The notes under the pieces were generated by a model. The model saw nothing but the letters and a program-made list of their open reading frames with translations. It was not told the origin of the DNA and searched no databases. A DNA stretch of 64,000 nucleotides from Patescibacteria group bacterium (GTDB taxonomy: Bacteria > Patescibacteriota > JACPGU01): NCBI GenBank assembly GCA_028718745.1, contig JAQULF010000003.1, positions 160-64,159 on the forward strand. Reading direction: 5' to 3'. Within the stretch, counting starts at the first letter, position 1. Every line of letters starts with the position of its first letter. The translations under genes were made by a program, and so were the position numbers. Shown here in pieces: positions 45,064-64,000 of the stretch.

Positions 45064-45561
45064 CTAAACCTTCTTCCTTCTCATCAAAACAAATACTTCA
45101 ATAACAATAAAAATCATAAATGCGCCCAGTATTCCGGCGATAATAAATAGATATGTCATAATGTTGCTGCCGGCGCTCGTCACATTAAAACTAGCCGCGA
45201 CATCTTGATTGAGATCTTTATAATCGCTGATTGTCGCGTAAAGCTTATATAATCCGGGTTTGGTGACTTCGGGAATCGCAATGGAATCCATAAAAGAAGC
45301 TTGAGTTTCAATCGCTTTTAGAACTTTTGAATAGGCTATTTCCGTACCGGCAGAATCTTTCACGGAATATTCTATCTTTAAATCTTGCCTGGTCGTATTT
45401 TCCGGCCATTTAATATCTGTTTCAAAATAAACCGGCGTGCCGGCTTTAACTGTAGAATATTGCGCCGGTATGCTAATAGTTGCGGCCATAGCCGACGCAA
45501 AACCCGGCAGTAACAATGCCGCCAGAAACAAAAGTGTAAATAGTATTGTTTTGAATTTCAT
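45064..45561 (-). CDS. Small secreted surface protein with C-terminal TM anchor and RRKK tail
   Basis: Signal peptide MKFKTILFTLLFLAALLLPGFASA; C-terminal hydrophobic helix + MRRKKV. Confidence 0.4.
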   Translation of the reverse strand: MKFKTILFTLLFLAALLLPGFASAMAATISIPAQYSTVKAGTPVYFETDIKWPENTTRQDLKIEYSVKDSAGTEIAYSKVLKAIETQASFMDSIAIPEVTKPGLYKLYATISDYKDLNQDVAASFNVTSAGSNIMTYLFIIAGILGAFMIFIVIEVFVLMRRKKV

Positions 45562-45562
45562 A

Positions 45563-46627
45563 TTATTTGATTTCTGAAAACATCCCCTGGCTATAAACTT
45601 TACCCCCTATTTTAACGGGTGAAGCATGTATTTTTACGGGAATTCTCTTTTTGTTTTTTGTTAAAACTTGTGTAACAATAAATTTAATTTTTCCTTCTGC
45701 TTGCTTTTGAAACCCCTCCATTGTTTTCTTTAATTTATCTTTTGGATGGAGATCGTCCGCTCGCATAGAAAGAAGTTTAGCTCGAGAATAACCCATAAGT
45801 TTTTCAGCCGCTTTATTGCAATCTACCAGCCGTCTCGTATCAGCATCCGCAATAAAAATAGCTTCCGTAGCATTTTCAAATAATGTACGATACTTCTGCT
45901 CCATATTATCTCTTATTCTCAATTCTTTTTCTTTTTTAAAAATTCCTTTTTCTTTTTCTAAAAAAAAGAAATACATTATTAATAAAACTATAATCGATAA
46001 AATAATTAATATAATCGGAATAATAAGATTGAAATAAATTACCTGTTGAGACCGTTGAATAATGTTCTTTTCAACACTAAGGGTCATTTCTTTTTCAATA
46101 TCCCCCCAAGCCATGCAGTCTTGATAAAGTTCATTTTTATATTGGTGATAGCTTCCCGCAACTATCAGAGAGTAGGCCGTATTAATATCTTTTTTATCCA
46201 TCGAATCAAACGCCCTCGCCTCTAAGTCAAATAATAAGAGATTAATCCTGTCTAAGTCCTTCAAAAGATCGTCAACTTTGTCTTTTACTTCTTGCGATCT
46301 TTGGCTTTGATTTAAAAGAATTCTTGCATCTCTTGTGAGAAGATTATCCAGCTTAATCCTTGTAGCATCATATTTGGCTTTATGGTCCTGTAATCCCTTA
46401 ACATCCTCTTTTTGCGCATGAAGTAATGCCGAATGAGCTTGATCTGTTAATATAGAATCATAGTTAACCACTTGTTCTACCATCAAGCTTAACGGTGCTT
46501 CAATATCTTTTATCTGCCGAGTATTATCAAGGGTATTGCCTAGCATCTTATAGGTAACGCCCATTTGAACCATACCCAAAATAATAATCGCCAAAAAACC
46601 AAATAAAATTTTTGTACTTGTCTTCAA
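45563..46627 (-). CDS. Membrane protein with C-terminal PAS domain (no output domain)
   Basis: N-terminal TM, second TM, C-terminal PAS fold (QKYRTLFENATEAIFIADADTRRLVDCNKAAEKLMGYSRAKLL...). Confidence 0.5.
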   Translation of the reverse strand: MKTSTKILFGFLAIIILGMVQMGVTYKMLGNTLDNTRQIKDIEAPLSLMVEQVVNYDSILTDQAHSALLHAQKEDVKGLQDHKAKYDATRIKLDNLLTRDARILLNQSQRSQEVKDKVDDLLKDLDRINLLLFDLEARAFDSMDKKDINTAYSLIVAGSYHQYKNELYQDCMAWGDIEKEMTLSVEKNIIQRSQQVIYFNLIIPIILIILSIIVLLIMYFFFLEKEKGIFKKEKELRIRDNMEQKYRTLFENATEAIFIADADTRRLVDCNKAAEKLMGYSRAKLLSMRADDLHPKDKLKKTMEGFQKQAEGKIKFIVTQVLTKNKKRIPVKIHASPVKIGGKVYSQGMFSEIK

Positions 46628-47690: not shown

Positions 47691-47737
47691 GATAATATCT
47701 TATTCCAAATACCTAATTCTAAAATAATTTAGAAATT

Positions 47738-48790
47738 TTATTTTTTCTTTCGTCTGATAATAAAATAGATAACAATCCCAATAGTAATAAGAACTACCCC
47801 CCCACCGATCAAAGCGATAGTAATGAGCTTTATACCGTAAATGGAAGACATTTTTACCTCAAATACTTGTTTGAAAATGTCATTTACATTGGCGCCATAC
47901 TTGGTCGCTACAATCAAAGTATATTTTCCGTTTTTTAAATTCAGGTTTGAAAAATCTTTAGTTACTACTTTCTCTGTCTCTACTACAACATTCCCTTTTT
48001 CATTATAGACTTCGTTGTTTTTAGAATCTAGTATCCTGTAACTTAATTCAACAGGAGTGGTCACGGTACCAAAATTTTCAAAAATCAACTGCGCCACCAA
48101 ATCGCTGGATTTGTTCAAGATAGCGTCATTGATATTTAATTTAATATCAAATAATTGCGCCGGAAGGATAATCGGTACTGCAACCGGAATTTCTGGCACC
48201 GGAACAGAAGCCGGAGCCGGCGTGGGAGTAACCACAGGAACAGGCACCGGATTGATTATGGGAGCGGAGACAGGGATAATAGCCGGAGCCAGATCTTGAG
48301 TTATGTTTATTATGGCTGGTGAACCAATAATAGCCGTATTGCTGCTCAACCCATCTAATGAAAAAGATTCGGCATCTATAAAAATAGATGTGACGCCGGT
48401 TTTTTTGGCAAGAAATGTTGCTGTCCCAAAATTGGTAACAGAATCAAATCCTCCCGGAAAACCTGCTGTACGAACCAGTACACCGGTATTATTATTTAGC
48501 TCTTCATAGCCGGGCTCATTGATTGAAATCCAAGTGTCGGCATAATTCCATCTTTGAACGCTAACCAATTCCGGTAAAAATTTGATTGAAAATCGCACCG
48601 TATAATTTTTGCCAGCCGTTGGTATAGCCTTTGTAGTAAGCGTAAATTGCTCCCCCGCTTTTACATTAACCACAACCGGGTTAATTTGTAAGGTTGTACT
48701 AGCGGCAGCGTTAACAGAAGCTGCATGTAAAAAAAGTGAACAGATGAAAATTGAAATTATTAGACTGGAAAAAAATTTTATTATTCGCAT
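47738..48790 (-). CDS. Secreted surface protein with Pro/Val-rich linker and C-terminal TM + RRKKK anchor
   Basis: Signal peptide, PVPVPVVTPTPAPASVPVPEIPVAVP linker, C-terminal hydrophobic helix + basic tail. Confidence 0.4.
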   Translation of the reverse strand: MRIIKFFSSLIISIFICSLFLHAASVNAAASTTLQINPVVVNVKAGEQFTLTTKAIPTAGKNYTVRFSIKFLPELVSVQRWNYADTWISINEPGYEELNNNTGVLVRTAGFPGGFDSVTNFGTATFLAKKTGVTSIFIDAESFSLDGLSSNTAIIGSPAIINITQDLAPAIIPVSAPIINPVPVPVVTPTPAPASVPVPEIPVAVPIILPAQLFDIKLNINDAILNKSSDLVAQLIFENFGTVTTPVELSYRILDSKNNEVYNEKGNVVVETEKVVTKDFSNLNLKNGKYTLIVATKYGANVNDIFKQVFEVKMSSIYGIKLITIALIGGGVVLITIGIVIYFIIRRKKK

Positions 48791-48800
48791 AGTTTTGTTT

Positions 48801-50483
48801 TTATGCTGCGGGTTCTATTTTACCCCAATTAACCATTAGTAAATTGAAATCAAAAATGTCTACTGATCCATCTCGATTAATATCGGCTGGATTGTCTGCC
48901 CCTATCTTGCCCCAATTCAATAGCAGGGCGTCCAAGTCCAAACTATCAATCTTTCCATCGCGAACGATGTCTGATCCATTCACCACATTCAAAAACCAAT
49001 TCGATTCTGCTTTGGGCTGGGTTGCTAGAGCGATCACCGCCGTAACTGTATAATTTTGGGTAGTTCCATCTGCGGCGGTAACAGTAAAAATTTGTGAAAT
49101 CGTAAAATTGCTGGATATAGCACTGGCCGGACTAACCAAAACACCCGTAAAAGTAATCGTCGGCACAAGCTCGGTAATGGCTTTGGCGGTGGTACCAAAA
49201 GGCATAGTTACAACAATTGTATGAATAGCTTCGTTGATTACTGTTTCGCCTAATTGTCCCGGAACGCTGAAACCGGTAATTGCCTTAGTCGAGCTTGCCG
49301 CCGGAGAATAGCTTCCCCCGCTAGAAGGCGATGCCGTAGGGTGGATAACCACGGTAACGGCATAATCTTGAGTTGTTTCGTCAACAGCGTTAACAGTATA
49401 AATTTGCGAAACTGTAAAATCAGTAACTGCCACACTGGCCGGATTAACCAAAGTACCGGTAAAAGTAATCGTTGGCACGAGTTCGGTAATAGCATGAGCC
49501 GTAGTGCCGGAAGGCATAGTAACAACAATCGTATGTGCATCCTCATTGATAATGGTTTCACCTAATTGGCTGGGAATAGCAAAAGCGGTGATCGCTTTAA
49601 GATCGCTTAAAACCGTCATCCCCGCATCAATATAATAAGGAGTAAAACTAACATTACCGGAAACACCTGTCTGAATATTTGTTTTAACAGCCGTCCCCCA
49701 CCAGTTCCTTGTAACATCCAGCATAGTGCTGCTTTGATTTGTTACCCCACCCGTGGCTAGACTTATATTTCCGATAAAATAATTACGATTAATCAATGGC
49801 GTAGTTCCCAGAATGTCTCCCGCAACTTTGATCGCAGCACTATTCGGAGATATTCCTAATGCATTAACCATAAATTGGTTAAGTCGGACAATCACCCCGC
49901 TATAATTGCTACCGGCTTCAAATAAAATTCCATTGCCCAAAGAAGCAAAAATATTATTTTGGATTAAACCACTGGGAACTGATGACAAAGATACTCCAGT
50001 GATGTGATTGGTAAGCTTGCAATTATCTAATGAGAGATAACCGACATTCTGCGCATTAATTGCCGTATTATTAGCATCCGCATCTATCGTTGAGTGAGGT
50101 GTTTGGTCAATGGTGAAACCATCAATTATAATTGAAGGAGCGATGGCATCTATTGTAGATAAAGACCCATCCGGAAGGCCTCTAATAATAGTGGAAGCGT
50201 AACCCGCCCCTTGAAGAGTTAAAGATTTATTTATCTGCAAATCTCCATCATATGTTCCTGCCGATACGCTAATCACATCACCACTACTAGCGGCATCAAT
50301 GGCTTCCTGAATAGTTAAATAATCATCCGGCACATTGATTGTCCCCGCTCTAGCGGGGTTTTTTGAGGCATTAAAAACAACAAAAATACTGGCTAGAACC
50401 ACGAATATAAATGCAAAAACCCATAAAAAAATCTTTGGTTTTCCCGAATATTTAGAATAAATGTCTAAAAAAAACTTTTTCAT
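48801..50483 (-). CDS. Secreted protein: parallel beta-helix (pectate-lyase/NosD-like) + two ~90-aa internal repeats + C-terminal dockerin
   Basis: Signal/TM N-terminus; beta-helix repeats (NNIFASLGNGILFEAGSNYSGVIV...); duplicated AITGF(S/A)VPGQLGET(V/I)INE...TITFTG module; dockerin DGKIDSLDLDALLLNWGK...DINRDGSVDIFDFNLLMVNWGK. Confidence 0.55.
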   Translation of the reverse strand: MKKFFLDIYSKYSGKPKIFLWVFAFIFVVLASIFVVFNASKNPARAGTINVPDDYLTIQEAIDAASSGDVISVSAGTYDGDLQINKSLTLQGAGYASTIIRGLPDGSLSTIDAIAPSIIIDGFTIDQTPHSTIDADANNTAINAQNVGYLSLDNCKLTNHITGVSLSSVPSGLIQNNIFASLGNGILFEAGSNYSGVIVRLNQFMVNALGISPNSAAIKVAGDILGTTPLINRNYFIGNISLATGGVTNQSSTMLDVTRNWWGTAVKTNIQTGVSGNVSFTPYYIDAGMTVLSDLKAITAFAIPSQLGETIINEDAHTIVVTMPSGTTAHAITELVPTITFTGTLVNPASVAVTDFTVSQIYTVNAVDETTQDYAVTVVIHPTASPSSGGSYSPAASSTKAITGFSVPGQLGETVINEAIHTIVVTMPFGTTAKAITELVPTITFTGVLVSPASAISSNFTISQIFTVTAADGTTQNYTVTAVIALATQPKAESNWFLNVVNGSDIVRDGKIDSLDLDALLLNWGKIGADNPADINRDGSVDIFDFNLLMVNWGKIEPAA

Positions 50484-50600: not shown

Positions 50601-53600
50601 TTATTTTACGGTTATATCCCAATATAATCCTACATCTTTTAACCAAGTTAATCCTTCAACCACCGGTCGGAAATATTCTCTGATTGTGCCGCTGACATTT
50701 GGCGCTTTAATGGTGAAATTAAATTTGGCGGTTTCCCCGGGATTGACAGTTTCCTTATCAATTTTGGTAGGGCGATTATTTGACAGCCAATCGGTATTTT
50801 TAATAATTGAGTCTCTATCCAATGGATTGCTGGTTCCCAAATGTACCGGATTTGCACCGTTTTGATTCCAGACAGCCGTTCCGGTATTTTTATATTCAAC
50901 CCATAAATTAGCCGTTCCATTTTTATCTAAGGTAATGAATGGGCTTTGAGAGATATATTCAGTGTTATAAAAAGTTGAAACAGATCCTTTTTCTACGGTA
51001 ATATCCCAATAAATACCAATATCCTTCATCCAGGTTATTCCTTCTACGACCGGGGTAAAGTATTCTCTGAATTTGCCGGTTTTATCATTAAATCCGGTAA
51101 TGTTAACATTGAAAGTGCCTATTTCTCCGGGCCGGACAATGTCTTGGCTTAATTTTGCCGCTCTATTTACACTAATCCAAGATGAATTAGAGAAGGAACT
51201 TGGGCGATCAAAACCATTGGAAGTCCCAAGTCTTACCGGATTTGGTCCGTCTTTGTACCAAGTAGCCGAACCGGTATTTTTGATAGTTAGAATTAAACTG
51301 GTGTTTTCTCCGCTTTTGATTATAGGATAATTGCTTTGAGTAATAAATCCATAAGAGTAATTTCCCGGATTGGAATCTATGGAATAATTAAACCCGCCCG
51401 TATTATTGCCGGTATTATTATTGCCCGCAGTGGGAGTCCGATAAACAAGAGCATATTTATTGCCAATGGTCTTCGTACTTAAAATAATTTTATTAATAGA
51501 AGTATCATTGCTAAATCCGGCAGCCAGCAACCAAGCATTTTGCGCGGCGTCAAATTGATATAGAGAGATATCACTTTTGGCTACTCCGCTTGGAAGCGAG
51601 CTGGAATTGTAAGTGAATGATAACGAAACCGGTTGGCTAAATGCGGTAACATTAACACCATTAACAGTTGCTAAAACATTGTAAAGCTTATTGCCTAAAG
51701 TAGTGTAGCCGTCAATCGGACCACTAGCAACATCAGAAGTGGTTATCGTAATAGAAGTATTAGATGAAACCGCGCCGGATGGAACATTGATATTTAAAGA
51801 GCTTCCATCGGAATTTGTAAGAGTGGTCGCTCCGCCCAGACTAGCCGTAACCGTAACTTGACCATTGGTTGTATTTGGAATAACTGGGTTCGGATTGCCT
51901 CCACCGCCGCCTCCGCCGCCTCCGCCGCTACTATCATTATCCGTAATATGAGCGGTAACGCTAGCAATCGCAAAGCCATTGTAATTTAGATCGGCGCCGA
52001 CAACCGCGTGAGAAATAGTTCCCGTATGATTGCCTTGTACAATCGCGTCATCAACCGCTGTTACAGTAACTGTTTGAGGCGTATTCCAATTGGCGCTGGT
52101 AAAAGTTAAAACCGTTGGATTAACTGTTATTTCGGCATCGGGTGTTTCAGTAATAACCACATTGGCGGATGGCTGGGTATCCAAAACCAAAGTGTAACTG
52201 TCAGTCGTTCCGCTTTCAGAAACATTGGTAATGCCGCCGGATTCAAAAAGAGTAATGCCGGCAACATCATTATCAGCAATATTGGCGGTAACTGGAATTA
52301 CATCCAAACCGTTGTACGCAGCATCCAAGCTGACCGTGCTAAAAGTAAGACTGTCGTTATGCGCTCCTTCTACAACATTATCATTAACCGCGTTAACATT
52401 TATTGTTTGAGGTGTAGTGTAATTAGCCGGCGTGAAAACCAATGAATTATTATCTATGGAAATTTCAGTGCCGGTTATCGCGATATTAACAAGAACATTA
52501 TTGGTTGGAACCGGACCGGATAAAGAAATATCCAGAGTATCCCCCGCTCCGCCTTCGATAACATTAACGGTTTGAGTGGATAAAACTACTGTCGCGCCAT
52601 CATTGTCAATGATATTTGCGGTAACATTTGCCACCGCGATGCCATTAAATATCGGATCAGCGCTGGTGGCCGCGTGTGTAATTAGACTCGTATGAGTGCC
52701 TTCCACTATGGCATCATCCACCGCAGAAACCGTGAAGGTTTGAGGCGTATTCCAGTTATAGGGCGTGAAAACAATGTTAGCCGGGACAACATTGATTTGA
52801 GCGGCATCAAAACTTGGCGTGATCGTAACATTGCTAACCGGCTGATCGCCCAAAACTATGGTATATGTATCGGTAACTCCGGCTTCAGAAACCCATGTAG
52901 ATCCACCGCTTTGAGTTACGGTGGTAGTAATCGGAACAACATCATCGCCATTATCTGAAATAGTCGCGGTTATTTGCGCGGTGAGACCATCAAAAGCTAA
53001 ATCGGCGCTACTAGCGGTGTGATCCACAAACCCCGTCTGACCCGCGCTTTCATTGAAGGTATCATTAACCGCGCTGATATAAATGAATCTTGGAATATCC
53101 CAGGTTGCCGGAGTAAAGGTAACGCTGCTGGATGAAACGGTTAGATCATTATTTGGCGCGAGAGCGATAGTAACATTACTGGTTGGAATATCATTAAGAA
53201 CCACAGTGTACATATTGTCCGGAACGAACAAAGTTGCGAATCCATCAAAGGACCCGGCCGAAGTTTTATTATCATCTGGCGCGCTCGTAGGATCATTAAA
53301 ATCTGAAACCCCTGCAAAATACCCACCGGCAAAAATCTTTCCGGAATTATTAACAGCGATAGAATAGTAGTCACTATCGCCCGAATTGCCGCCAGCAGTT
53401 TTAGTAAATCCATAAGTTCCATTTGCATTTATTTTTGTTAAAAAGGCATGATAATTAACCGTATCATAACCGGCAATCACTTTAAAATCAACTCCGGCAG
53501 TAGGGTCAAAGTCAATCCCTTCCGCGCCATTGGAAGCGGTACCGGAAATATAAACATTATCAGATGAATCAACAGCTATTGCATTAGCTTCAACATCTCT

Positions 53601-54857
53601 TCCTACATCACCGATCTGAAGAACACTCTGATAAACACCGCTGAAATTATATTTAGCTAAAAAAGCGTCAAAATCACCCGTAGCGGTAAGGGAATTCGGT
53701 CCGCTTTCTGGGTTAAAGTCAGTAGTGCCAGTAAAATATCCTGCTAAATAGATATTTCCTAAACCATCAACTGCAATCCCCATTAACTGATCATAACCGG
53801 GGGCCGTTGCCTTTATTGTCTTACTAAAAACATAATTACCGGAAGAATTTATTTTGGTAAAAAAAGTTTCTCCAACTACGGCTGAATCTTTTATGTCAGT
53901 CCCAGCAGTTGGGTCCAAATCTACAGAACCAGCAAAAATTCCAGCGAGATAAACATTATTAGAGCTATCAACAAAAATTCTACTTCCAGAATCGGTTCCC
54001 GCCCCGCCAATCGTATAAGTATAGCCGTAAGATCCATTGGCATTTATTTTGGTAAAAAACGCGTCCAAACTAGCAGTATCTGAAGTTTTAGAATCAGCCG
54101 GTCCAGAGCCGGTTGTATTAAAATCAATCGTTCCTGAAAAATATCCCGAAAAATAGACTGAATCATCCGGACCAATTACTAATGAGTTCGGAAAAATCGA
54201 TCCTGCTACACCCGCGTCAAAAACATAGGTGTATCCATAAGATCCATTGGAATTAATTTTAGTTAAAAAGATATTGGTAACATTGGCCGGTGAAGAAGTT
54301 TTATTGTCTACTCCGGCGGTCGGATCAAAATCAACCGTGCCGGCAAAAAGACCTAACGCGTAAGCATTGCCGGAAGAATCTGACTTAATCCCCATCAAAT
54401 GTTCGCTTTTAATTCCGCCCATATTATAAGCATAAGCCAGCGTTCCGTCCGAATTAACTTTGGATATAAAAATATCACTGCCTGAAGCGCCTGCCCTATT
54501 CATTAAAGGAGTAGAAAATCCTCCATTAGAAACTACATCTTTTACACCAACCGTGGGGTCTATGTCAGCAGTGCCATTAAACCCCCCGCCAATGTACATA
54601 TTTCCATTATTATCTAAATCAACAGCTTCTAATGTATCCAATACCGTTCCTCCAACCTGAAAAGTATACCCGTATGAAGGAGCCAGATTCCCCCCTTCCC
54701 GAAGGTTGAGAGCGCCTCCTGAAGGAGTTAGTGTAATTCCGGCTAGCGCTTTAACACCTGATAAAGGAATTAAAATAAAAGACAGAGCCAAAACGGCTGC
54801 AATTATTACATTCCATTTATTACTTTTTTGAGAACTTCGGTTTGGGCTTTTTTTCAT
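50601..54857 (-). CDS. Giant secreted surface protein (1418 aa): SBBP-like beta-propeller repeats, ~5 tandem Calx-beta/cadherin-like domains, Gly11 linker, two C-terminal copies of a conserved ~110-aa module
   Basis: Signal peptide; repeated GT(V/I)DF(D/N)PT...; repeated ...VTA(N/H)I(A/T/I)DND... domains; SSGGGGGGGGGGNPNP; C-terminal modules ending ...EYF(T/R)PVVEG(I/L)TW(M/L)KD(I/V)G(I/L)YWDITV. Confidence 0.6.
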   Translation of the reverse strand: MKKSPNRSSQKSNKWNVIIAAVLALSFILIPLSGVKALAGITLTPSGGALNLREGGNLAPSYGYTFQVGGTVLDTLEAVDLDNNGNMYIGGGFNGTADIDPTVGVKDVVSNGGFSTPLMNRAGASGSDIFISKVNSDGTLAYAYNMGGIKSEHLMGIKSDSSGNAYALGLFAGTVDFDPTAGVDNKTSSPANVTNIFLTKINSNGSYGYTYVFDAGVAGSIFPNSLVIGPDDSVYFSGYFSGTIDFNTTGSGPADSKTSDTASLDAFFTKINANGSYGYTYTIGGAGTDSGSRIFVDSSNNVYLAGIFAGSVDLDPTAGTDIKDSAVVGETFFTKINSSGNYVFSKTIKATAPGYDQLMGIAVDGLGNIYLAGYFTGTTDFNPESGPNSLTATGDFDAFLAKYNFSGVYQSVLQIGDVGRDVEANAIAVDSSDNVYISGTASNGAEGIDFDPTAGVDFKVIAGYDTVNYHAFLTKINANGTYGFTKTAGGNSGDSDYYSIAVNNSGKIFAGGYFAGVSDFNDPTSAPDDNKTSAGSFDGFATLFVPDNMYTVVLNDIPTSNVTIALAPNNDLTVSSSSVTFTPATWDIPRFIYISAVNDTFNESAGQTGFVDHTASSADLAFDGLTAQITATISDNGDDVVPITTTVTQSGGSTWVSEAGVTDTYTIVLGDQPVSNVTITPSFDAAQINVVPANIVFTPYNWNTPQTFTVSAVDDAIVEGTHTSLITHAATSADPIFNGIAVANVTANIIDNDGATVVLSTQTVNVIEGGAGDTLDISLSGPVPTNNVLVNIAITGTEISIDNNSLVFTPANYTTPQTINVNAVNDNVVEGAHNDSLTFSTVSLDAAYNGLDVIPVTANIADNDVAGITLFESGGITNVSESGTTDSYTLVLDTQPSANVVITETPDAEITVNPTVLTFTSANWNTPQTVTVTAVDDAIVQGNHTGTISHAVVGADLNYNGFAIASVTAHITDNDSSGGGGGGGGGGNPNPVIPNTTNGQVTVTASLGGATTLTNSDGSSLNINVPSGAVSSNTSITITTSDVASGPIDGYTTLGNKLYNVLATVNGVNVTAFSQPVSLSFTYNSSSLPSGVAKSDISLYQFDAAQNAWLLAAGFSNDTSINKIILSTKTIGNKYALVYRTPTAGNNNTGNNTGGFNYSIDSNPGNYSYGFITQSNYPIIKSGENTSLILTIKNTGSATWYKDGPNPVRLGTSNGFDRPSSFSNSSWISVNRAAKLSQDIVRPGEIGTFNVNITGFNDKTGKFREYFTPVVEGITWMKDIGIYWDITVEKGSVSTFYNTEYISQSPFITLDKNGTANLWVEYKNTGTAVWNQNGANPVHLGTSNPLDRDSIIKNTDWLSNNRPTKIDKETVNPGETAKFNFTIKAPNVSGTIREYFRPVVEGLTWLKDVGLYWDITVK

Positions 54858-55038: not shown

Positions 55039-57849
55039 TTATTTAACTATTATTTGCCAATATATTCCAATATCTTTCATCCATTTTACTCCATCCACAA
55101 CCGGTGTAAAGTAGGCTTTGTAAGTTCCGGGGGTTGCGGGAGCTTTAAGTTTAAACTGAAATCTAGTATTCCAACCTGGTCTGATCTCCGGATGCATTAT
55201 AGCAACCGCCCTATTTGCCGACAACCAATTGCTATTGGCAAATTCGCTAACATAATCTCTTTGCTGATTTATATTGCCATAAGAAGATCCGGAACCAAGA
55301 CGAACTACATTATTGCCATTATTAAACCAAGTGGCGGTGCCGGTATTTTTTACTTCAATCCAAACATCTATCAGATCTCCCGGATTTGCTTCGGCAGGAT
55401 ATGGAGACTGATATATCAATTGATAATCATAAGTCCCCAGCATTAGTTTCGCCCTGCGGGCTATTTCTTCCGGAGAAAGTTCCACTATGGGTTGAGTTTG
55501 AAATTGGATCTGTTCTATAATCTCTTCCCGTTGAGGTGTTGATGGCGGTTCCAACCCTTCTTCGTCATTTGGAACGGGGTTATAATATGCCGGCGGCGGA
55601 TTTGATGGGGCAGAAGAAGTATAAGTTGCAAAAGTCGTAAAATGTTTCGTCCAAACAGCAAGATTGCCATCATCAAGACTGATTTTACAATCTTCCGGAC
55701 TGCCATTTTCAATTAGGTTTGCTATCGCCCAACTCTGGCCATCGTCAAGGTTGTTAATGCATGCCGTTGTAATTTCTGTGAAAAGGCCCCCTCTTGAATA
55801 ACCAATTCTCTCTCCGGCCTTTCCTTCAAAAGTTAGTTTTACCGGATTATTAAAAGTTAATTTAGTATCTGCAAAACCAACATCTATCGCGGAATCAACT
55901 ACCGCGCCCGGCAATGATAAAGTTGTTACTTGGGGAACATCCATGGCCCCCGTCCAAGATGTATCACCGTCCGCTGTGATAGTGGTTCCGGAAGGAATAT
56001 TTACAGATACCGTCCCATCACTAAGAGTTTTGGTAATATTTATTTCCGGTATGGAAGAGGCTACGCCGCCAGAGGTAAATGCGCCCAAATCTATTTGAGA
56101 ATTATCAGAACCTAAATCTACATTTACATTAACTGTATCTGAAGTACCAAGAGAGCTTGAGACTAATAATGATTGGTTATCGCCTGAAATAGTTTGGGGA
56201 GTATCATTCGTTACTTCTGTCGTTAAACTGGTGCCGGTATTTATAAGCAATGTCCAACCTTTATTGCCGGAAACATCGCTAAGAAGAGCCCAAACATCAT
56301 TAGTAAAAGTCGCGGTATCCCCTTCTCCTACATCTCGGGATATTCTCAAATGATTATTCATCCAGTGAAAAGTTAATTCTTTATCAGCGCCATTACTCAA
56401 AGCATTTTGTACTGCTGTTATACTATCCTCGCTTAATTGTTCGCTAAAAATAAGAGCTGCGCCATATAAATTTGGTCTGCTGCCGCCTAAATATGGTAAT
56501 TCATAACCGGCATCTCCGCTGCCCAAAACTCCGCTTGTAATTCTTGGCGCGGCCTTATCTTCGGCCGTAACATTCATCATCGCTGTTTGTTCATTACCGG
56601 AAAGATCTTTTATACTCAAATGCCCCGCCGGATTTATCGTTACGATCGGGGTATCATTAGCCAAATCGCTATCAAGAAATAAAGTTACTTTTCCATTATC
56701 TTCACTTAAGCTACTAATGGAATAATCACCATATCCGTCTATTGAAACTTGAAAATCAGCGGTAGTTAACTGACTTTCATCTAAATCTTCATCAAAAAAC
56801 ACTTCCACTTCATTGCCGGATATTGTGCGAGCGCTTAATAATTGTGGCGGAGCAACATCTAAACTCGTAGTATTAACTCCAACCGGTAGTGTATTGGATA
56901 GCATCGCCTCATGCGGGTTAGAACTTCCCGGATCAAGTATTTCTACATTTACCGCCGAAAAAGGACTATCAGCTCCAACATTGATTCCTCCCGATAATGT
57001 ATCTACTTCTACCGTAAAGCTTTCGTTGAATGAACCAGTATCACTATCAGCGCATCCACCGGTAGTATAGTTAACACTTGCATAGCCCTCATTAACCGCG
57101 CCATAGCTTCCACTGCCGATACCGTATGATTGCAATCCGGCTTCAACCGCTATAATTGCGCAGCCGCCCGAGACATTAGTATAAGAAAAACTGCCGGACA
57201 AATTAATCTGATCTCCGCTATTTACTATTCCGTTTCCGTCTAGATCGGTATAGCCAAGAGTAACGCTATTGATAGTAATGGACGAAACCGGAGGTTCAGG
57301 AGGAACAGTATTAACCCCAACCGGCAGTGTATTGGATAGCATTGTCACGGGTGGGTTACCGCTTCCGGGATCAGATACGAGCACATCTACCGCCGAAAGT
57401 GGGCTATCAGCTCCAACATTGATTCCTCCATTAATTATGTCAGCTTCTACGGTAAAAAGTTCATTAAATGAAATGGTGCCGCTATCAGGACCGGAGCAAT
57501 CACCGGAGGCGCTTATTTCTGTATAGCCCTCATAATAGCTGCTATCGCCGCCAAGACCATAATTTCTCAAATCAGCATTAGGCGATATTAGCGCGCAACC
57601 ATCAACTATTCCTATATAAGAAGCTGATCCGGAAATATTGATTGAATCTCCAGCGTTCACTATTCCATTTCCGTCCACATCGGTATAGCCAAGAGTAACA
57701 CTATTGATTACGATAGCGCTACCAATTGCTTTTGTCGCAGACTGTTTGTTATTGGAAAAAATAAAATAAGAACTTAGGGAAATCAAAATAATAACCGCTA
57801 TTATAAAAATAAGTTTTTTTGCCCAATCTTTTTTTATCTTTGTTATCAT
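55039..57849 (-). CDS. Large surface protein (936 aa) with N-terminal TM anchor, tandem Ig-like repeats and the shared C-terminal ~110-aa module
   Basis: N-terminal TM LIFIIAVIILISLSSYFIF; duplicated ITINSVTLGYTD(V/L)DGNGIVN(A/S)GD module; C-terminus ...KAYFTPVVDGVKWMKDIGIYWQIIVK. Confidence 0.55.
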   Translation of the reverse strand: MITKIKKDWAKKLIFIIAVIILISLSSYFIFSNNKQSATKAIGSAIVINSVTLGYTDVDGNGIVNAGDSINISGSASYIGIVDGCALISPNADLRNYGLGGDSSYYEGYTEISASGDCSGPDSGTISFNELFTVEADIINGGINVGADSPLSAVDVLVSDPGSGNPPVTMLSNTLPVGVNTVPPEPPVSSITINSVTLGYTDLDGNGIVNSGDQINLSGSFSYTNVSGGCAIIAVEAGLQSYGIGSGSYGAVNEGYASVNYTTGGCADSDTGSFNESFTVEVDTLSGGINVGADSPFSAVNVEILDPGSSNPHEAMLSNTLPVGVNTTSLDVAPPQLLSARTISGNEVEVFFDEDLDESQLTTADFQVSIDGYGDYSISSLSEDNGKVTLFLDSDLANDTPIVTINPAGHLSIKDLSGNEQTAMMNVTAEDKAAPRITSGVLGSGDAGYELPYLGGSRPNLYGAALIFSEQLSEDSITAVQNALSNGADKELTFHWMNNHLRISRDVGEGDTATFTNDVWALLSDVSGNKGWTLLINTGTSLTTEVTNDTPQTISGDNQSLLVSSSLGTSDTVNVNVDLGSDNSQIDLGAFTSGGVASSIPEINITKTLSDGTVSVNIPSGTTITADGDTSWTGAMDVPQVTTLSLPGAVVDSAIDVGFADTKLTFNNPVKLTFEGKAGERIGYSRGGLFTEITTACINNLDDGQSWAIANLIENGSPEDCKISLDDGNLAVWTKHFTTFATYTSSAPSNPPPAYYNPVPNDEEGLEPPSTPQREEIIEQIQFQTQPIVELSPEEIARRAKLMLGTYDYQLIYQSPYPAEANPGDLIDVWIEVKNTGTATWFNNGNNVVRLGSGSSYGNINQQRDYVSEFANSNWLSANRAVAIMHPEIRPGWNTRFQFKLKAPATPGTYKAYFTPVVDGVKWMKDIGIYWQIIVK

Positions 57850-57880: not shown

Positions 57881-58954
57881 CTATTTAACCTTTATCTCCC
57901 AATATATTCCAATATCTTTCATCCAATTAATTCCATCAACAACGGGTGTAAAATAGGCTTTGTAAATACCCGGGGTTGCGGGAGCTTTAATATTAAATTG
58001 AAATTTGGTGCTTTGTCCCGGCTGAACTATCGAATCTAGCATGCCAACCGGTCTATTTGCCGATAACCAATCGCTATCTACAAATTCTGACGCGTAATCC
58101 AATTGTTGGTTTGAATTTCCGTAAGCGGAACCCGATCCTAATCTTACAGGGTTAGAGCCATCAGCCAGCCAAGTTTGATTGCCGGTATTTTTTAATTCCA
58201 CCCAAACATTAGCTGTCTCCCCGGAATTTAGTTCTGCCGGATAAGGAGATTGGCTGACTAATTCATAATCATAAGAATTTTGCGCGTCATATTTCAAAAT
58301 CCATCCCGAATAAATCGTATTGGCACCGCCATCATAAAGGCTGGGAAACTGATCTTGGTTCAGCTCTACCAATCTCGTCCATTTTTCAGCATCGCCATAG
58401 ATTTTTAAAGCGATCGCTTTTAGATCATCGCCGGGTTGGACTTCGTAATAACCGGAGGTAAATTGGTTTGTATTATTTTGATTTGGCGAAACGGGTGGAA
58501 CAAGTGGAACAACCGGAATGGGTTGAGCTATTTCCTGCGGTTTTTCCAAAATCGCTTCCCTTTCTGCCGAAGTTAAATTGAGACTATTGATATTAAGATC
58601 ATATTTCAAAACCCAATCGCTATAAATATTATTTGGCATTGTAACCAAACTGGGGTATCTATCTTGATTTAATTCCACCAATCTCGTCCATTTAGAGCTA
58701 TCGCCATAAAGATTTTGCGCGATATCCTTCATGGATTCCCCCGCTCCCACCACATATTCACCAAATAATTGATCAGCTAATCCTGCCGTAGCAATATTAT
58801 TGTCCGAAACATTGGTAATTGGTTGCGATAAACTGTTGTCCGCCATAACTTTGGAAAAAGGAGTAACCAAAAAAGCAAGTACAAAAAGACTTACTATTAT
58901 GAAAAGTGCTACTTGGATTTTTTTATTTTGTTTTGTGTTTTTGTACTTGATCAT
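57881..58954 (-). CDS. Surface protein with two LysM-like motifs and the shared C-terminal ~110-aa module
   Basis: N-terminal TM; two copies of ...GD(S/D)(M/L)K(D/A)IA...YGD(S/A)(S/E)KWTRLVELNQD(R/Q)(Y/F)PSL...(D/G)W(V/I)LKYD; C-terminus ...KAYFTPVVDGINWMKDIGIYWEIKVK. Confidence 0.5.
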   Translation of the reverse strand: MIKYKNTKQNKKIQVALFIIVSLFVLAFLVTPFSKVMADNSLSQPITNVSDNNIATAGLADQLFGEYVVGAGESMKDIAQNLYGDSSKWTRLVELNQDRYPSLVTMPNNIYSDWVLKYDLNINSLNLTSAEREAILEKPQEIAQPIPVVPLVPPVSPNQNNTNQFTSGYYEVQPGDDLKAIALKIYGDAEKWTRLVELNQDQFPSLYDGGANTIYSGWILKYDAQNSYDYELVSQSPYPAELNSGETANVWVELKNTGNQTWLADGSNPVRLGSGSAYGNSNQQLDYASEFVDSDWLSANRPVGMLDSIVQPGQSTKFQFNIKAPATPGIYKAYFTPVVDGINWMKDIGIYWEIKVK

Positions 58955-58979: not shown

Positions 58980-61900
58980 TTAATATTTTAAAACCCACCC
59001 GGCATAAATAACATTGGCGCCGCCGGCATAGAGGCTTGGATATTGAGCTTGATTGAGTTCTACCAATTTCACCCATTGACTGCTATCGCCATAGAGTTTT
59101 TGAGCGATCCACTGTAAATCATCACCGGGTTGAACCGTATAAACTCCGTTGCTTGGCTGTTGGGAGGCGGGCTGCTCCGCGGGTGTTGTTGAGGGGGTTG
59201 GTTGGACCGGTTGAAATGTTCCGTCATTGACATTGATTTCCCAGTAAATACCAATATCTTTCATCCAGGTGATGCCGTCGGCAACAGGAGTAAAGTAGGC
59301 TTTGTAATTTCCATTTGTCATCGGCGCCTTAATCGTGAACTGGAATCTCGCGTTCCATCCCGAAATAATTCCAAGTGGTGAAATAGCAGTTGGTCTATTT
59401 TGAGATAACCAATCGGTATTTGCAAATTCACTATTGTAATCTTGCTGCTGATTGCTATTCCCATAGATTGAACCAGAACCAAGACGAACATTATTTTCCC
59501 AAGTAGCTGTGCCGGTATTTTTTACTTCAACCCAAACATTGGCTGTTTCCCCGGGTTTAAGAGTGGTCGGATATGGAGATTGATAAACCAACTCATAATC
59601 ATAAGTTCCTAGCTGTTCTGGCGGTATTGGAGCAAAACCAAGATCATATTTCAAAACCCAGCCTGAATAAAGCGTGTTGGCCCCCCCATCATAAAGACTT
59701 GGAAATTGAGCTTGGTTTAGTTCAACTAACCTCATCCATTTATTAGAATCACCATAAAGATTTTGCGCGATTGATTGCAAAGAATCTCCCGACTGGACTG
59801 TATATTCACCAAGTAAAGGAGTGACTGGCGGCGTAACCGGAGGAATTACCGGAGGAATTACCGGAGGAATAACAGCGCCGGTTTTTAATGTACCAAAAAC
59901 CGCAAAAGTAGAAAAGTGATTTATATGCGCGGTAATTGTATGCGCCACAGTATCCAAAACACTTGGCACCAAAATCCAAATTTTTGCGGTTTCATCCCAA
60001 TAATATAATTTCAATGAGCTTTCATCAAAACTGTTCAGTAATAAATTATTTCCATAAGGTATCGTGATTGTAATATTGCCGTTAAGACTGGTAACTTTTA
60101 CATTGTTTGAAACTAGAAATGCATTGATATCAAATGCGTTTAATAATGATAATCCTAAAGGTGAAGCTGGAGGATTGTTTTCATTGGTTAGCGTTATATT
60201 GATATTCCCATTGATTGTGCCGGCGGGAATATTTACACGAACAGAACCATCGGCTAGAGAAATCGTTCCCCCGCCGGCAGAAGTGATTACTCCTGAACCT
60301 ATAAGTGAAACCGGTTGAGGTGGCGGCGGAGTAGATCCTCCCCCACCTGATGGCGGAGCCGGAGCAATGGTTACTGTGACAGTATATGGCTGAATTGAAA
60401 GATCAGCAGCCGTAACCGTATATATTTGCGGAGTTACAAAGTTGTTAGCAACACCGGAAAGCGGGCTGACTGATGCACCGGTAATTGTGATGGTTGGAAC
60501 GAGTGCAGTTACATTGGTTCCATGAGGAACTGTCAACGCAATCGTATGAGCCGGTTCATTAATTGTAGTCCCACCCACTTGGCCGGGTACGGTAAATGCC
60601 GTAATCGCCTTGTCCGAACTTAAAGGAGGGGTGATTGTCCAAGCATAAGTAGCTGGAGTCGCATCAACATTTCCAAAAGCGTCAATTGCTCTTACATTAA
60701 AGGTATGAGCAGCAACTGATAAACCGGTATAGTTCTTTGGACTTGTACAAGGCGAATAACCACCGGAATCAATCTGACATTCAAAAGTACCTGCTTCGGT
60801 AGAATTAAACGAAAATGAAGCCGAAGTTGAAGAGGTGCTTAGTGGCGGATTGGTTAGAATCGTAGTATTCGGATTTAAAGTATCAATGGTAAATGTGCTT
60901 GCCGACTCAACAAAACTGCCTTGATTTTGAAAAACATCTTTTGCGCGTACGCGAACTTTCATGTTTATATTTTCTTGAAGATTAAAATCAGTTCCCGCAT
61001 CCCAAGAAATAGTCTTATTATTGCCAATAATTTGTCCGCTGCCAACATCTCCGGTCAAGGTAGTAATTGGCACAACCCAGCTAGATGTACCATCGTCTAT
61101 TTCGGCTTCAACCATTATAAAAGCAGTACTATCATCTGTTAAATCATAATAAATTGTAACTATTTTTGATCCATCAGTAGCCTGGGCGGCGGAAACATTT
61201 GAAACAACCGGTTTTTTCACATCAATGGTAATAGCGGAAGAAGTGAAATAACTGCTCGGGTCTACCCCATCGCTGGCTTTTCCTCGTATATAAACCGTCC
61301 CGTTAAAATCACCGAGATCAGCGGCGGCATTCCAAACGAAGGTATAATTATTTCCACTCGGCGAAGTTGCCAAACCGGTAATGCCACTATCATCAGGATC
61401 ACCGGTTGCTTCCGTCATGGTTAACTCTTCCCCCGCAAAAGCGCCGGTTAGAGAATATTGTCGCGAGATAATATCGCACGGGTCAGAATCTGCGTCTGAA
61501 AGAGTGTAAGTAACATCAAAGAAGCCATCATCTGTTTTTTGACTGCCTACAACATTGGTAATTAAAGGAGCTGAATTTCCGCTTGTTGTGGTAACTGGTC
61601 CTATTTCCGTCGCGTTTACCTTGTTTCCAGCCTTATCATATATCCAGATATTAAAGAAATATGGAGTTGAAGCCGTTAACCCTGTAACTGTTGTTGAAAC
61701 CGCTCCATTATAATTTTCAAAACCAAGATTTGCATCGTCTAATTTTGTCCAAGGAATATCTGATTCTGTAACTCCGGCGCTCGTTTTCCTAAATATCTTG
61801 TATTCTTTGAAATTAGTATCCGAGCCGGCTAATCCAAAAGTTAAGCTAGTAGAAACATTGGTAGTGGAATCAGAATCAACCAAATCGCCCGGTGCTATCG

Positions 61901-63821
61901 GATCGGTAGTATCTTTGGTTATATTCGGTTGGTTATCAGTTCCGACATTGCTAAATAGATCGGTATCTCTTAAATATAAAGTAAAGGTTGTTAAACCGGA
62001 ACCATCCAAAGCACCAAATCCCGTTAGATCGTTCATGGTCGTTACCCCACTGGCGCAAGAAACCCAGGAAGAATTATCTATCGAACATTCCAAATTGTTG
62101 AAATCATTAGCGGTAAATGAAATCACCTTCGATGCATTAACAAAATCACCCGATACCGGAGATACGATACTTACGATCGGCGCGACCACTTGCTTTAAGA
62201 TCGTATCCGTAGCGTTATTTCCTTGATTACCAAGAGCGTCAACCAGATAAACAGTCAGAGTAAGCGTGCCATTATCAAGACTGCTAACATCTATCGGAGA
62301 TATGGTATCTGTCCCCGTTGATATGAAACCGCTTCCCGTAACTGCAGGCGTAAGAACATTTGTATCGTCAATTGAATAATTGTAAGTTGTTCCTATTTCA
62401 GCAGCAGTAAAAGTAAACGAAGCGGTTGTTTGATTGATACTGTTAATAGAGACCTGGTCAAAAGCCACAGCATAGCCGCTTGGCGCTACATTATCTACCG
62501 TGAACGGCCCAGTTGATGCGGGATTGCTGTTCTCATCACCGTCCGTAACTATAAATTGGAAATAGACATCGTTGACAGAAGTAGTCGGAATCTCCACATG
62601 GCTTGACCAGGTTAATGTATATTCGGTGCCGGAAAAATCAGTGGCGGGAACAAATGTGGAGGCCGGAGAAAAAGTCATTGATCCATCAGCAACCGCTGTC
62701 CAGCTGCCACCAACTCCGATTTTATATTGAGCGCTTCCTGACTTGAAAGTAGAAGTATCAACTGCCCCATCCGGATCTTTGACGCGGAATTTAATATCTA
62801 CCTGCCCGCTTCCATCCGTTGTTTGCGTCGCGGATCCAAGTACATCATCAACCGTATGGCCGAGAACCGGGGGTTGGTCCGCGGCAAGCGTTGTTGTATT
62901 TATATCTGGGACCGTTTCTTCCAGGCCAACCTTATCTACTGCCCAGATTTTGAAATAATATGTAGTTGAATTGGAAAGCCCGGTTATGGTTGTGGTCGTC
63001 GTGGTTCGACTTAAAAGAGCCGCATCTTTGACAGCATCCCATTTCACTGCCAAACCTGACTTGCCCTGGACATCAGCTTGCGCTAAAGCGTCAGCTTGTA
63101 CCGGCAGACCGGTTGAATACCATATTTCATAATGATCAAAGTTTGCTTCGGTCACTGCTGTCCAATTCAAAACTTGCGAAGTTGAGCCGGTAGATCCGGC
63201 AACTAATGCGGTTAACCCTGTTGGGGCAGTAGTATCAATTATAATATTTTTATTAAATCCCAATGATCCCACGACTCCCGGGGTGGGAAGTGTTAGGATC
63301 GCATCATTTCCAACTGTATCTTTGATAGTGCCGCCATTTAGGACCAATGATGTAGTTGCGACATAATCCAGATCAGCCGAATTGTCGCTGGCTCCCACAG
63401 TATAATCAAAGGTTAAAGTATTGGTGCCGGTACCGGAACTGTAAGTTGCTGCTCCTCCACTATTTAGCGCTAAGGAAGGAGGTCCGCCCAATACATTGAC
63501 TATTTTTGAAAAAGTAACTTGAATAGAAACCGGAGCTCCCGTAGTATAAGCGCCATTAGCTGTAGAAGAAGTAACATTGGTAACACTGGCTTGAGCGGAG
63601 AAATCCCAATTGATATTATTTCCGCCATTAATATTTGTTCCCGCATCGGTTCCATTGACAACCGTTCCCCCGCTGGCATCTGAATATGAAGGTGAAACAT
63701 AGTTTATGGTTTGTGTTGCGGGCGCATGAATCAGCCAATGTGTTAATGGGGTAACCGGCGCCAAGGTCAAAATATTTCCTGACGCACCGGATAGAGTAAG
63801 CTGATTGGTTACATCTTGCAA
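58980..63821 (-). CDS. Giant surface protein (>=1613 aa; N-terminus probably beyond window end) with many Ig/fibronectin-like domains, the AITAFTVPGQ module, shared C-terminal ~110-aa module and two LysM-like motifs
   Basis: No signal peptide at tracked M (frame appears open to the window edge); KAITAFTVPGQVGGTTINEPAHTIALTVP module shared with 48801 ORF; PPVIPPVIPPVTPPV linker; C-terminal ...KAYFTPVADGITWMKDIGIYWEINV then LysM-like tail. Confidence 0.55.
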   Translation of the reverse strand: MQDVTNQLTLSGASGNILTLAPVTPLTHWLIHAPATQTINYVSPSYSDASGGTVVNGTDAGTNINGGNNINWDFSAQASVTNVTSSTANGAYTTGAPVSIQVTFSKIVNVLGGPPSLALNSGGAATYSSGTGTNTLTFDYTVGASDNSADLDYVATTSLVLNGGTIKDTVGNDAILTLPTPGVVGSLGFNKNIIIDTTAPTGLTALVAGSTGSTSQVLNWTAVTEANFDHYEIWYSTGLPVQADALAQADVQGKSGLAVKWDAVKDAALLSRTTTTTTITGLSNSTTYYFKIWAVDKVGLEETVPDINTTTLAADQPPVLGHTVDDVLGSATQTTDGSGQVDIKFRVKDPDGAVDTSTFKSGSAQYKIGVGGSWTAVADGSMTFSPASTFVPATDFSGTEYTLTWSSHVEIPTTSVNDVYFQFIVTDGDENSNPASTGPFTVDNVAPSGYAVAFDQVSINSINQTTASFTFTAAEIGTTYNYSIDDTNVLTPAVTGSGFISTGTDTISPIDVSSLDNGTLTLTVYLVDALGNQGNNATDTILKQVVAPIVSIVSPVSGDFVNASKVISFTANDFNNLECSIDNSSWVSCASGVTTMNDLTGFGALDGSGLTTFTLYLRDTDLFSNVGTDNQPNITKDTTDPIAPGDLVDSDSTTNVSTSLTFGLAGSDTNFKEYKIFRKTSAGVTESDIPWTKLDDANLGFENYNGAVSTTVTGLTASTPYFFNIWIYDKAGNKVNATEIGPVTTTSGNSAPLITNVVGSQKTDDGFFDVTYTLSDADSDPCDIISRQYSLTGAFAGEELTMTEATGDPDDSGITGLATSPSGNNYTFVWNAAADLGDFNGTVYIRGKASDGVDPSSYFTSSAITIDVKKPVVSNVSAAQATDGSKIVTIYYDLTDDSTAFIMVEAEIDDGTSSWVVPITTLTGDVGSGQIIGNNKTISWDAGTDFNLQENINMKVRVRAKDVFQNQGSFVESASTFTIDTLNPNTTILTNPPLSTSSTSASFSFNSTEAGTFECQIDSGGYSPCTSPKNYTGLSVAAHTFNVRAIDAFGNVDATPATYAWTITPPLSSDKAITAFTVPGQVGGTTINEPAHTIALTVPHGTNVTALVPTITITGASVSPLSGVANNFVTPQIYTVTAADLSIQPYTVTVTIAPAPPSGGGGSTPPPPQPVSLIGSGVITSAGGGTISLADGSVRVNIPAGTINGNINITLTNENNPPASPLGLSLLNAFDINAFLVSNNVKVTSLNGNITITIPYGNNLLLNSFDESSLKLYYWDETAKIWILVPSVLDTVAHTITAHINHFSTFAVFGTLKTGAVIPPVIPPVIPPVTPPVTPLLGEYTVQSGDSLQSIAQNLYGDSNKWMRLVELNQAQFPSLYDGGANTLYSGWVLKYDLGFAPIPPEQLGTYDYELVYQSPYPTTLKPGETANVWVEVKNTGTATWENNVRLGSGSIYGNSNQQQDYNSEFANTDWLSQNRPTAISPLGIISGWNARFQFTIKAPMTNGNYKAYFTPVADGITWMKDIGIYWEINVNDGTFQPVQPTPSTTPAEQPASQQPSNGVYTVQPGDDLQWIAQKLYGDSSQWVKLVELNQAQYPSLYAGGANVIYAGWVLKY

Positions 63822-64000
63822 AACAGAACTTTGGAAAGAAACTGTTCGCGCGGTTGTGCCGGTTATTGAAAGGTTATTCCAGATGTTAGCGCCACTAATA
63901 GTTTGCGCGCCAGTTCCATTGAAATCAATCGTGCTAGTACCGGCCGTAAAAGTCCCGCCATTATTAGTCCAGTTGCCCCCGACACTATGAGTAAATGTTG

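Follow-up and report, generated by a model that had tools for sequence, protein, structure and literature searches.

Genes of the locus and the module they share

The DNA analysed here, a 64,000-nucleotide stretch of contig JAQULF010000003.1 from a Patescibacteria group bacterium (hereafter the window), contains between position 45064 and its end nine open reading frames (ORFs), all on the minus strand and separated by short gaps. Our analysis supports the view that these ORFs constitute a cell-envelope surface-display locus of a bacterium of the candidate phyla radiation (CPR, or Patescibacteria), and that the locus comprises two parts: a variable set of four genes whose protein products share a repeated module, assigned below to the FW domain family, and a conserved cassette of five genes that includes a dockerin protein and a candidate cohesin protein. 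A CPR origin had been proposed in a preliminary description of this region, made from the sequence alone, and is borne out by the 350-amino-acid (aa) product of one cassette gene, which has 100% identity to a protein at NCBI encoded by a metagenome-assembled genome (MAG) of a 'Patescibacteria group bacterium'; the 1418-aa product of another ORF is identical to the public-collection protein P0057. That description treated the region as one 19-kb cluster. The genes are indeed contiguous on one strand, whereas the division into a variable FW-gene set and a conserved five-gene cassette argues against a single unit. Scans for promoters and terminators returned site counts at chance level, and operon boundaries could not be drawn.

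The first part of the locus begins with a giant surface protein (58980..64000) that is cut N-terminally by the window end. It is listed at 1613 aa from a TTG start at 63821, a length that must be read as a lower bound because the reading frame continues without a stop to base 64000 and spans at least 1672 codons; its ortholog in locus L079, from a close relative whose penicillin-binding protein (PBP) and MraZ are each 85% identical, has 3296 aa. The domains of the giant are ordered as fibronectin type III (fn3) and Ig-like repeats, a DUF5018-like Ig module (60357..60674; AITAFTVPGQ...) common to the 560-aa protein of the cassette, a ZU5-like module, LysM, FW and a second LysM. Downstream of it lie genes for a 357-aa protein (57881..58954) comprising only a signal peptide, two LysM-like modules and one C-terminal FW module; a 936-aa protein (55039..57849) with an N-terminal hydrophobic anchor, two ~150-aa repeats, a Big_5 domain (56590-56820), a ZU5-like module and a C-terminal FW module; and the 1418-aa protein (50601..54857), in which a signal peptide is followed by an SBBP beta-propeller region (~53223-54680), four Calx-beta-like repeats (~51903-53225), a ZU5-like module and two C-terminal FW modules. 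The SBBP repeats substantiate the beta-propeller that had been suspected in this cluster. Signal-peptidase sites of the AXA type can be read from the sequence of the 1418-aa protein (between KALA and G) and the 357-aa protein (between KVMA and D). The two repeats of the 936-aa protein occupy residues ~45-340, share the pattern INSVTLGYTD(V/L)DGNGIVN(A/S)GD... and have no Pfam match at E<=10.

A hidden Markov model (HMM) of the shared module, compared with the six-frame translation of the window, detects exactly five copies, distributed over these four consecutive genes. They measure 123-131 aa, longer than the ~110 aa originally estimated. Two copies are found in the 1418-aa protein (50604-50972 and 50985-51359), as had been noted, and one each at the C-terminus of the 936-aa protein (55042-55434), at the C-terminus of the 357-aa protein (57884-58276) and in a subterminal position in the giant (59223-59606; residues 1406-1533 of 1613). 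Three of the four genes therefore end in the module, as first described, and the giant does not, since an 80-aa tail with its second LysM follows. The five copies are 44-68% identical, their alignment contains 33 invariant columns that include four tryptophans, and pairwise BLAST comparisons give E values of 1e-26 to 9e-59, far beyond chance.

Two of the four proteins combine FW with LysM. In the giant, the modules are arranged LysM-FW-LysM, with the first LysM (59634..59813) scoring 25.4 bits against a Pfam cut-off of 20.9, and the second, at the extreme C-terminus (58983..59150), scoring 22.4 bits; the latter has no counterpart in the L079 ortholog, which ends right after FW. The order in the 357-aa protein is LysM-LysM-FW. 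Its copy 1 (58595-58768) has no Pfam match and its copy 2 (58283-58453) reaches 17 bits against the same cut-off; both are 51-58% identical to the copies of the giant by BLAST. The NCBIfam LysM protein PRK11198 matches two stretches in each protein, with E values of 4e-13 and 1e-11, the latter for the giant. The LysM-like motifs previously seen in two genes thus amount to two copies each, two of which pass Pfam. FW modules are also found beside LysM in the related loci L008/L009.

Identity and distribution of the FW module

The window proteins score 17.1-27.1 bits against Pfam PF16158 (N_BRCA1_IG), all just under the gathering cut-off of 28 bits. Relatives recovered with the window profile match the same family far better: 121 of the 126 that were scanned do so at E<=1e-4 (best E 7.8e-71), and we assign the window copies to PF16158 by transitivity on this basis. 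An AlphaFold2 model of the module copy in the 357-aa protein, with a pLDDT of 90.7, points to the same family. Its top four Foldseek matches in the PDB are chains A-C of NBR1 (4OLE) and ILRUN (6VHI), with E values of 1e-6 to 1e-5 and TM-scores of 0.64-0.76; the best of them is the FW domain of human NBR1 (4OLE; E 1e-6, TM-score 0.65-0.73), and the fungal (Chaetomium) Nbr1 FW domain 7VQO appears lower in the list. When a profile of 33 diverse modules was compared with PDB sequences, 4OLE was again the best match (E 0.013), with the KNTGxxxW and APxxxGxY motifs aligned; the profile of the five window copies gave only chance-level matches in that comparison. All four tryptophans are invariant in the window copies, and three are at least 90% conserved across the 33 diverse modules. 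In the partial alignment with 4OLE, the tryptophan of KNTGxxxW matches, and a phenylalanine stands opposite an NBR1 tryptophan in APALEGTYTSHW.

From these profile and model comparisons, we assign the module to the bacterial FW (four-tryptophan, NBR1-like) domains of Ig fold classified in PF16158. The initial guess of an NBR1-like or Ig-like domain is thus upheld both by the Pfam family and by the fold matches to 4OLE and 6VHI, and the predicted structure is an FW beta-sandwich, not an enzyme fold with catalytic residues. FW, or 'four-tryptophan', domains have been described as broadly distributed in bacteria in near-C-terminal positions, with XRE-FW regulators the only bacterial proteins discussed (PMC3357945, PMC9233695). 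The window module resembles the eukaryotic NBR1 and ILRUN domains, its best PDB matches, in its Ig-like beta-sandwich, and the bacterial FW proteins (PMC3357945) in its near-C-terminal location. It differs from known FW proteins in being extracytoplasmic rather than cytosolic and usually in tandem, and in its partners, which are secreted enzymes, LysM and giant adhesin-like proteins instead of PB1, ZZ, UBA or XRE domains. Sequence identity to solved FW structures is only 14-18%, and not every one of the four tryptophans invariant in the window copies falls at a tryptophan position of NBR1. A search of the literature available returned no paper that ties PF16158 or NBR1-like domains to CPR bacteria, peptidoglycan or cell-wall binding.

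The family became visible only by exhaustive search. A word-indexed homolog search with the module returned just 19 short proteins, while an exhaustive profile search over 1.84 billion representative proteins identified 6,959 representative clusters at E<=1e-3, 946 of them at E<=1e-30. Every protein among the best 150 of these 6,959 relatives has 2-9 copies of the module, and tandem arrays of 2-15 copies occur across the family. In the same best 150, the last copy lies no more than 30 aa from the C-terminus in 114 proteins, and an N-terminal hydrophobic export segment is present in 116 of the 137 whose N-termini are complete. The domains fused to FW are diverse. Amidase_2 (11), SpoIID (7), Peptidase_M23 (2) and CHAP (2) were detected among the 126 scanned relatives, such that about one sixth carry a peptidoglycan hydrolase; eight more matches were to Subtilase (Peptidase_S8), and further fusions involve several glycoside hydrolase families, glucose/sorbosone dehydrogenase and DUF4832.

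A genome scan with patterns derived from the window copies, and for that reason biased to close relatives, identified 78 genomic loci comprising 98 ORFs with 247 modules. The source genomes are nearly all Patescibacteria, including Saccharibacteria, Microgenomates, Berkelbacteria, Kazan, Peregrinibacteria, Gracilibacteria and Parcubacteria, and given how the patterns were obtained we make no claim that the module is exclusive to CPR bacteria. No partner gene is conserved beside the FW genes across the 78 loci; neighbours are common only to close relatives.

The dockerin-cohesin cassette, the ZU5-like module and synteny

The second part of the locus opens with a 560-aa protein (48801..50483) that has an N-terminal hydrophobic segment, a NosD-like right-handed beta-helix (~49674-50312; NCBIfam NosD family, E 4e-18), two DUF5018-like modules (~49023-49658; Pfam DUF5018) and a C-terminal type I dockerin (48834-48971; PF00404). 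A scan restricted to the C-terminal 76 aa gives the dockerin 23.7 bits, above the cut-off of 22.9, and a scan of the whole protein gives 18.3; both of its D-x-D/N-x-D-G loops are visible (DGKIDSLDLDALLL and DINRDGSVDIFDFNLLM). Dockerin and beta-helix had both been read on this gene in the preliminary description and hold up under these searches, the former when scanned alone; so does the AITGFxVPGQ module said to be common to this protein and the giant, whose copies are DUF5018-like and 40-49% identical (BLAST E 1e-28 to 1e-29).

Ten nucleotides downstream of the dockerin gene starts the gene for the 350-aa protein (47738..48790), which comprises a signal peptide, a divergent candidate cohesin domain (~48296-48709), a Pro-rich linker, an Ig-like domain and a C-terminal transmembrane (TM) helix followed by RRKKK. 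Direct matches to this protein are absent from Pfam (E<=10) and the PDB (phmmer, and hmmsearch with a family profile); in eight of its 19 aligned homologs, the corresponding N-terminal domain matches Pfam Cohesin (PF00963; best E 7.6e-10). Three further genes complete the cassette: one for a dCache protein (46776-47690), one for a TM/PAS protein (45563-46627) and one for a small Ig-like protein anchored by a C-terminal TM segment (45064-45561). Neither the dCache protein nor the PAS protein has a kinase or other output domain; L079 carries, in place of the latter, two paralogs of 234-238 aa without the PAS part.

A dockerin gene lies immediately upstream of a cohesin homolog in four independent contexts (the window, L079, L081/L082 and L083), those of L079, L081 and L083 being orthologs of the 560-aa gene, and the order dockerin, cohesin, dCache, PAS, small Ig/TM is kept in three of them (window 45064-50483, L079 8082-13971 and L081 5404-9956). 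Because this adjacency recurs, we infer that the 560-aa dockerin would pair with the adjacent membrane-anchored 350-aa protein. The search for a cohesin partner thus led to the neighbouring gene, a divergent candidate that carries its own C-terminal membrane anchor. Two dockerins had been mentioned. One is that of the 48801 gene, and the second lies outside the cluster, on a 676-aa NHL/beta-propeller protein (17201-19231) whose N-terminal dockerin follows a signal peptide and scores 24.7 bits against 22.9; this protein is a possible second client of the single cohesin.

The pair shares with known cohesin-dockerin systems (cellulosomes, and non-cellulosomal pairs of bacteria and archaea) a type-I-like dockerin with two Ca-loop repeats, a candidate cohesin-family domain borne by a cell-anchored protein and the adjacency of the two genes. 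It differs from them in having one cohesin and no multi-cohesin scaffoldin, in a cargo made of a NosD-like beta-helix and DUF5018-like repeats, in an anchor formed by a C-terminal TM helix instead of SLH or sortase, in the linkage to dCache and PAS genes, and in a cohesin too divergent for a direct Pfam match. A cellulosome was ruled out: the window has a single cohesin, and neither dockerin protein has a glycoside hydrolase as cargo.

Three proteins (the giant and those of 936 and 1418 aa) share a ~150-aa module that appears ZU5-like and is placed just ahead of the LysM/FW region. It lies at 59856..60308 in the giant, where it ends in ...INHFSTFAVFG, at 55594-56082 in the 936-aa protein, where the motif is HFT (KHFTTFA), and at 51420-51872 in the 1418-aa protein, without HF[ST]. 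Direct Pfam matches are absent even at E<=10, a profile comparison with PDB sequences returned no match, and the AlphaFold2 model built from a four-sequence alignment was poor (pLDDT 61). A database-wide profile search recovered a single relative (P0190; E 4e-8). This protein ends in THFSLY and scores 32 bits on Pfam ZU5 (PF00791), where the cut-off is 21; the link of the giant's module to the family was made through it. The HF[S/T] tripeptide is kept in seven of the nine detected modules, including that of the giant's ortholog despite 46% identity over the module, and is absent from the 1418-aa protein and its ortholog.

Eukaryotic ZU5-type domains cleave themselves at HFS. The module has in common with ZU5/GPS-type modules (PIDD, UNC5CL, NLRP1/CARD8 FIIND and Nup98) an HF[S/T] tripeptide on the last strand, a length of ~150 aa with predicted beta structure, a location between passenger and anchor, and the Pfam ZU5 link via P0190; it differs in having neither a direct Pfam match nor a confident structure, and in the 1418-aa copy, which lacks the motif. 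Autoprocessing by ZU5 has been predicted for bacterial surface proteins (PMC3482391), and the HF[S/T]-bearing modules of the window may be a candidate autoproteolytic joint between passenger and anchor. We regard the weakly supported ZU5-like assignment as a lead and not a result.

Directly downstream of the locus on the minus strand lies a full set of division and cell-wall genes (the dcw cluster), comprising mraZ, mraW, a PBP transpeptidase gene, murE, mraY, murD, ftsW, murG, murC and ftsQ. A similar location recurs among relatives with different FW genes. In L079, the giant gene is directly followed by the dockerin gene, and the 357-, 936- and 1418-aa genes are absent; their place at 7757-7948 is taken by a 63-aa hydrophobic ORF without a match, and no remnants of the three genes are detectable there. 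A Microgenomates MAG (L001) carries a 1543-aa ortholog of the 1418-aa protein immediately upstream of mraZ, and in another Patescibacteria locus (L008), four large genes precede mraZ, one of which encodes a 3288-aa protein containing LysM and three FW modules. Comparison of synteny and variability, suggested in the preliminary description, thus finds that gene content differs among L079, L001 and L008: the position upstream of dcw is kept in this lineage, and the set of FW genes turns over. We interpret the dcw linkage as lineage synteny because mraZ is near FW genes only in these three loci, all from relatives, and in none of the other 75; a general link between FW and dcw was rejected.

Conservation along the giant is uneven. 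Relative to the L079 ortholog, FW is the best-conserved part, at 82% identity compared with 28-76% elsewhere: 76% for the DUF5018-like module, 67% for passenger residues 637-1049, 58% for LysM 1, 46% each for the ZU5-like module and residues 200-636, and 28% for the N-terminal residues 1-200.

Base composition also changes along the window. The surface genes between 48000 and 64000 have a G+C content of 0.40-0.45, versus 0.35-0.39 between 28000 and 48000, and their GC skew is near zero, versus -0.2 in the dcw region, with genes on the same strand throughout; this shift may reflect a Gly/Thr/Ala/Ser-rich protein composition or a different origin. Within the dcw cluster, ~2.4 kb (36125-38431) separate mraY (38549-39577) from murD (34709-36064) and contain a 175-aa ORF without a family, a fragment of an IS200-like Y1 transposase (E 2.4e-6) and an RluA-type pseudouridine synthase gene. 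This segment looks like an insertion, because mraY directly precedes murD in L079.

Possible functions of the FW proteins

The domain identities, repetition, family architecture, synteny and variability described above bear on what FW might do. We give about even weight to the reading that FW is a non-covalent cell-wall anchor working alongside LysM, and to its being something else. Under the wall-anchor reading, the variable first part of the locus would supply modular proteins exported through Sec (1418, 936, 357 and at least 1672 aa) whose passengers (fn3, Big_5, Calx-beta-like and DUF5018-like repeats and the SBBP propeller) would face outward. Their C-terminal ends, comprising one or two FW copies and, in two of the four proteins, LysM too, would bind peptidoglycan or a peptidoglycan-attached polymer non-covalently, and FW would keep the proteins on the cell's own wall after cleavage of the signal peptide. 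In the giant and the 936-aa protein, the ZU5-like HF[S/T] module before the anchor may cleave itself, with the passenger staying non-covalently on the anchor. In the second part, the dockerin of the beta-helix/DUF5018 protein would plug into the cohesin that the next gene encodes, on a protein that a C-terminal TM helix would fix in the membrane; the dCache and PAS sensor-type proteins follow. Secreted surface display, as originally proposed, agrees with three features of the locus: hydrophobic signals at the N-termini, LysM modules that bind the wall and a candidate cohesin anchored in the membrane.

SLH, CWB2, GW and LysM are C-terminal repeats that retain varied surface proteins on the wall of single-membrane bacteria. 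The argument for wall retention by FW is likewise that one repeated C-terminal module is common to autolysin-type hydrolases, proteases, glycosidases and giant adhesin-like proteins, a distribution that it shares with SLH, CWB2, GW, choline-binding, LysM and SH3b repeats. It resembles these repeats further in that it co-occurs with LysM and is better conserved than the passengers, and it differs in lacking any sequence or fold relation to them, its wall binding being what we infer. Because the signal peptides of the 1418-aa and 357-aa proteins appear cleavable, these proteins would need a retention module. A conserved FW joined to a fast-evolving passenger also fits a constant ligand on the bacterium's own cell better than a host-specific one.

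Several points weigh against this interpretation or parts of it. The characterised FW domains bind proteins or peptides and not glycans: the FW domain of CtNbr1 holds Ams1 by its N-terminal tail, using a pocket located between beta1 and beta6 (PMC9233695), and that of NBR1 binds MAP1B (PMC3357945). Some 80% of the scanned relatives have no recognisable wall enzyme, and the census of fusions covers only top-scoring, multi-copy relatives and is a biased sample. If the N-terminal anchors of the 936-aa and 560-aa proteins stay uncleaved, their C-termini would be distal, with FW at the tip of the 936-aa protein, which would fit binding to another cell; moreover, LysM and FW could equally well bind the exposed peptidoglycan of a host. 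In the rest of the scheme, the cohesin assignment of the 350-aa protein is transitive, without a direct Cohesin match, the ZU5 link passes through the single intermediate sequence P0190, and Foldseek found no match to the ZU5-like model at E<=0.001, with the GAIN domain structure 4dlo at rank 12 (E 0.22).

Binding to a host or prey is the alternative that the preliminary description favoured in calling the region an episymbiotic attachment locus. FW and LysM would then bind the surface or peptidoglycan of that cell, and the FW-tagged hydrolases of relatives would attack its wall. The source is a member of the Patescibacteria, whose cultivated representatives are all episymbionts in the portion of the literature available; this subfamily of the module was recovered almost only from CPR genomes, albeit in a scan biased by its window-copy patterns; and Amidase_2, SpoIID, M23 and CHAP fusions would suit weapons against a host wall. 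The 936-aa and 560-aa proteins may remain membrane-bound through their long N-terminal hydrophobic segments, with the C-terminus distal, and the gene set varies between relatives as would be expected of host-interaction genes. We nevertheless think this alternative doubtful. In the giant, no part is better conserved than FW (82%), and the passenger is the more variable (28-67%), the opposite of what a host-specificity determinant should show; the module is also attached to proteases, glycosidases and dehydrogenases, as a general retention tag would be; and the 1418-aa and 357-aa proteins, whose signal peptides are plausibly cleavable, have nothing else to hold them on the cell. Host contact through the FW module itself is hence somewhat disfavoured on sequence grounds.

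The nature of the known FW ligands leads to a different proposal, in which FW is a protein-protein domain as in NBR1 and docks its proteins via a peptide tail onto another envelope protein, such as an S-layer lattice, a pilus or one another, instead of binding the wall. The only FW domains with known ligands do bind protein or peptide (PMC9233695, PMC3357945), and those NBR1-type domains are the best fold match in the PDB; at 14-18% identity to NBR1 and ILRUN, however, the type of ligand need not be kept, the co-occurrence of LysM and peptidoglycan hydrolases points to the wall, and no gene that could encode such a partner stays beside FW across the 78 loci. We rate this proposal as unlikely. 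Less probable still, and in our estimate very unlikely, is that the module is a sorting or secretion signal read by a dedicated machine and then removed, like the C-terminal domain of the type IX secretion system (T9SS). Its location within 30 aa of the stop in 114 of the best 150 relatives and its form, a beta-sandwich of ~125 aa on very diverse cargo, would suit such a signal, whereas arrays of 2-15 copies fit avidity-based binding instead, the giant has another domain after FW, and the 78 loci have no conserved machinery gene alongside.

As a whole, the locus is a typical and fairly ordinary variable cluster of modular surface proteins, every part of which belongs to a catalogued domain family. 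What stands out in it is the extracytoplasmic branch of the FW family, very large and probably serving as a wall anchor, together with the conserved cassette and the candidate ZU5-like joint, and both the dockerin-cohesin-dCache-PAS cassette and a possible self-cleaving joint are testable leads. A considerable portion of bacterial diversity falls within the CPR. We suggest, tentatively, that FW could be a general wall anchor of CPR bacteria that replaces SLH, CWB2 and sortase, and that the FW domain of eukaryotic NBR1, which binds cargo in this autophagy receptor, could have descended from a bacterial envelope-binding module. If FW does anchor proteins to the wall, it would represent a previously unrecognised class of wall-binding repeat used by autolysins, proteases and giant surface proteins, would serve as a sequence handle for the surface proteome of any CPR genome and as a tool for surface display or labelling of uncultivated CPR cells, and would, for the first time, place the bacterial relatives of the NBR1 FW domain in a functional context.

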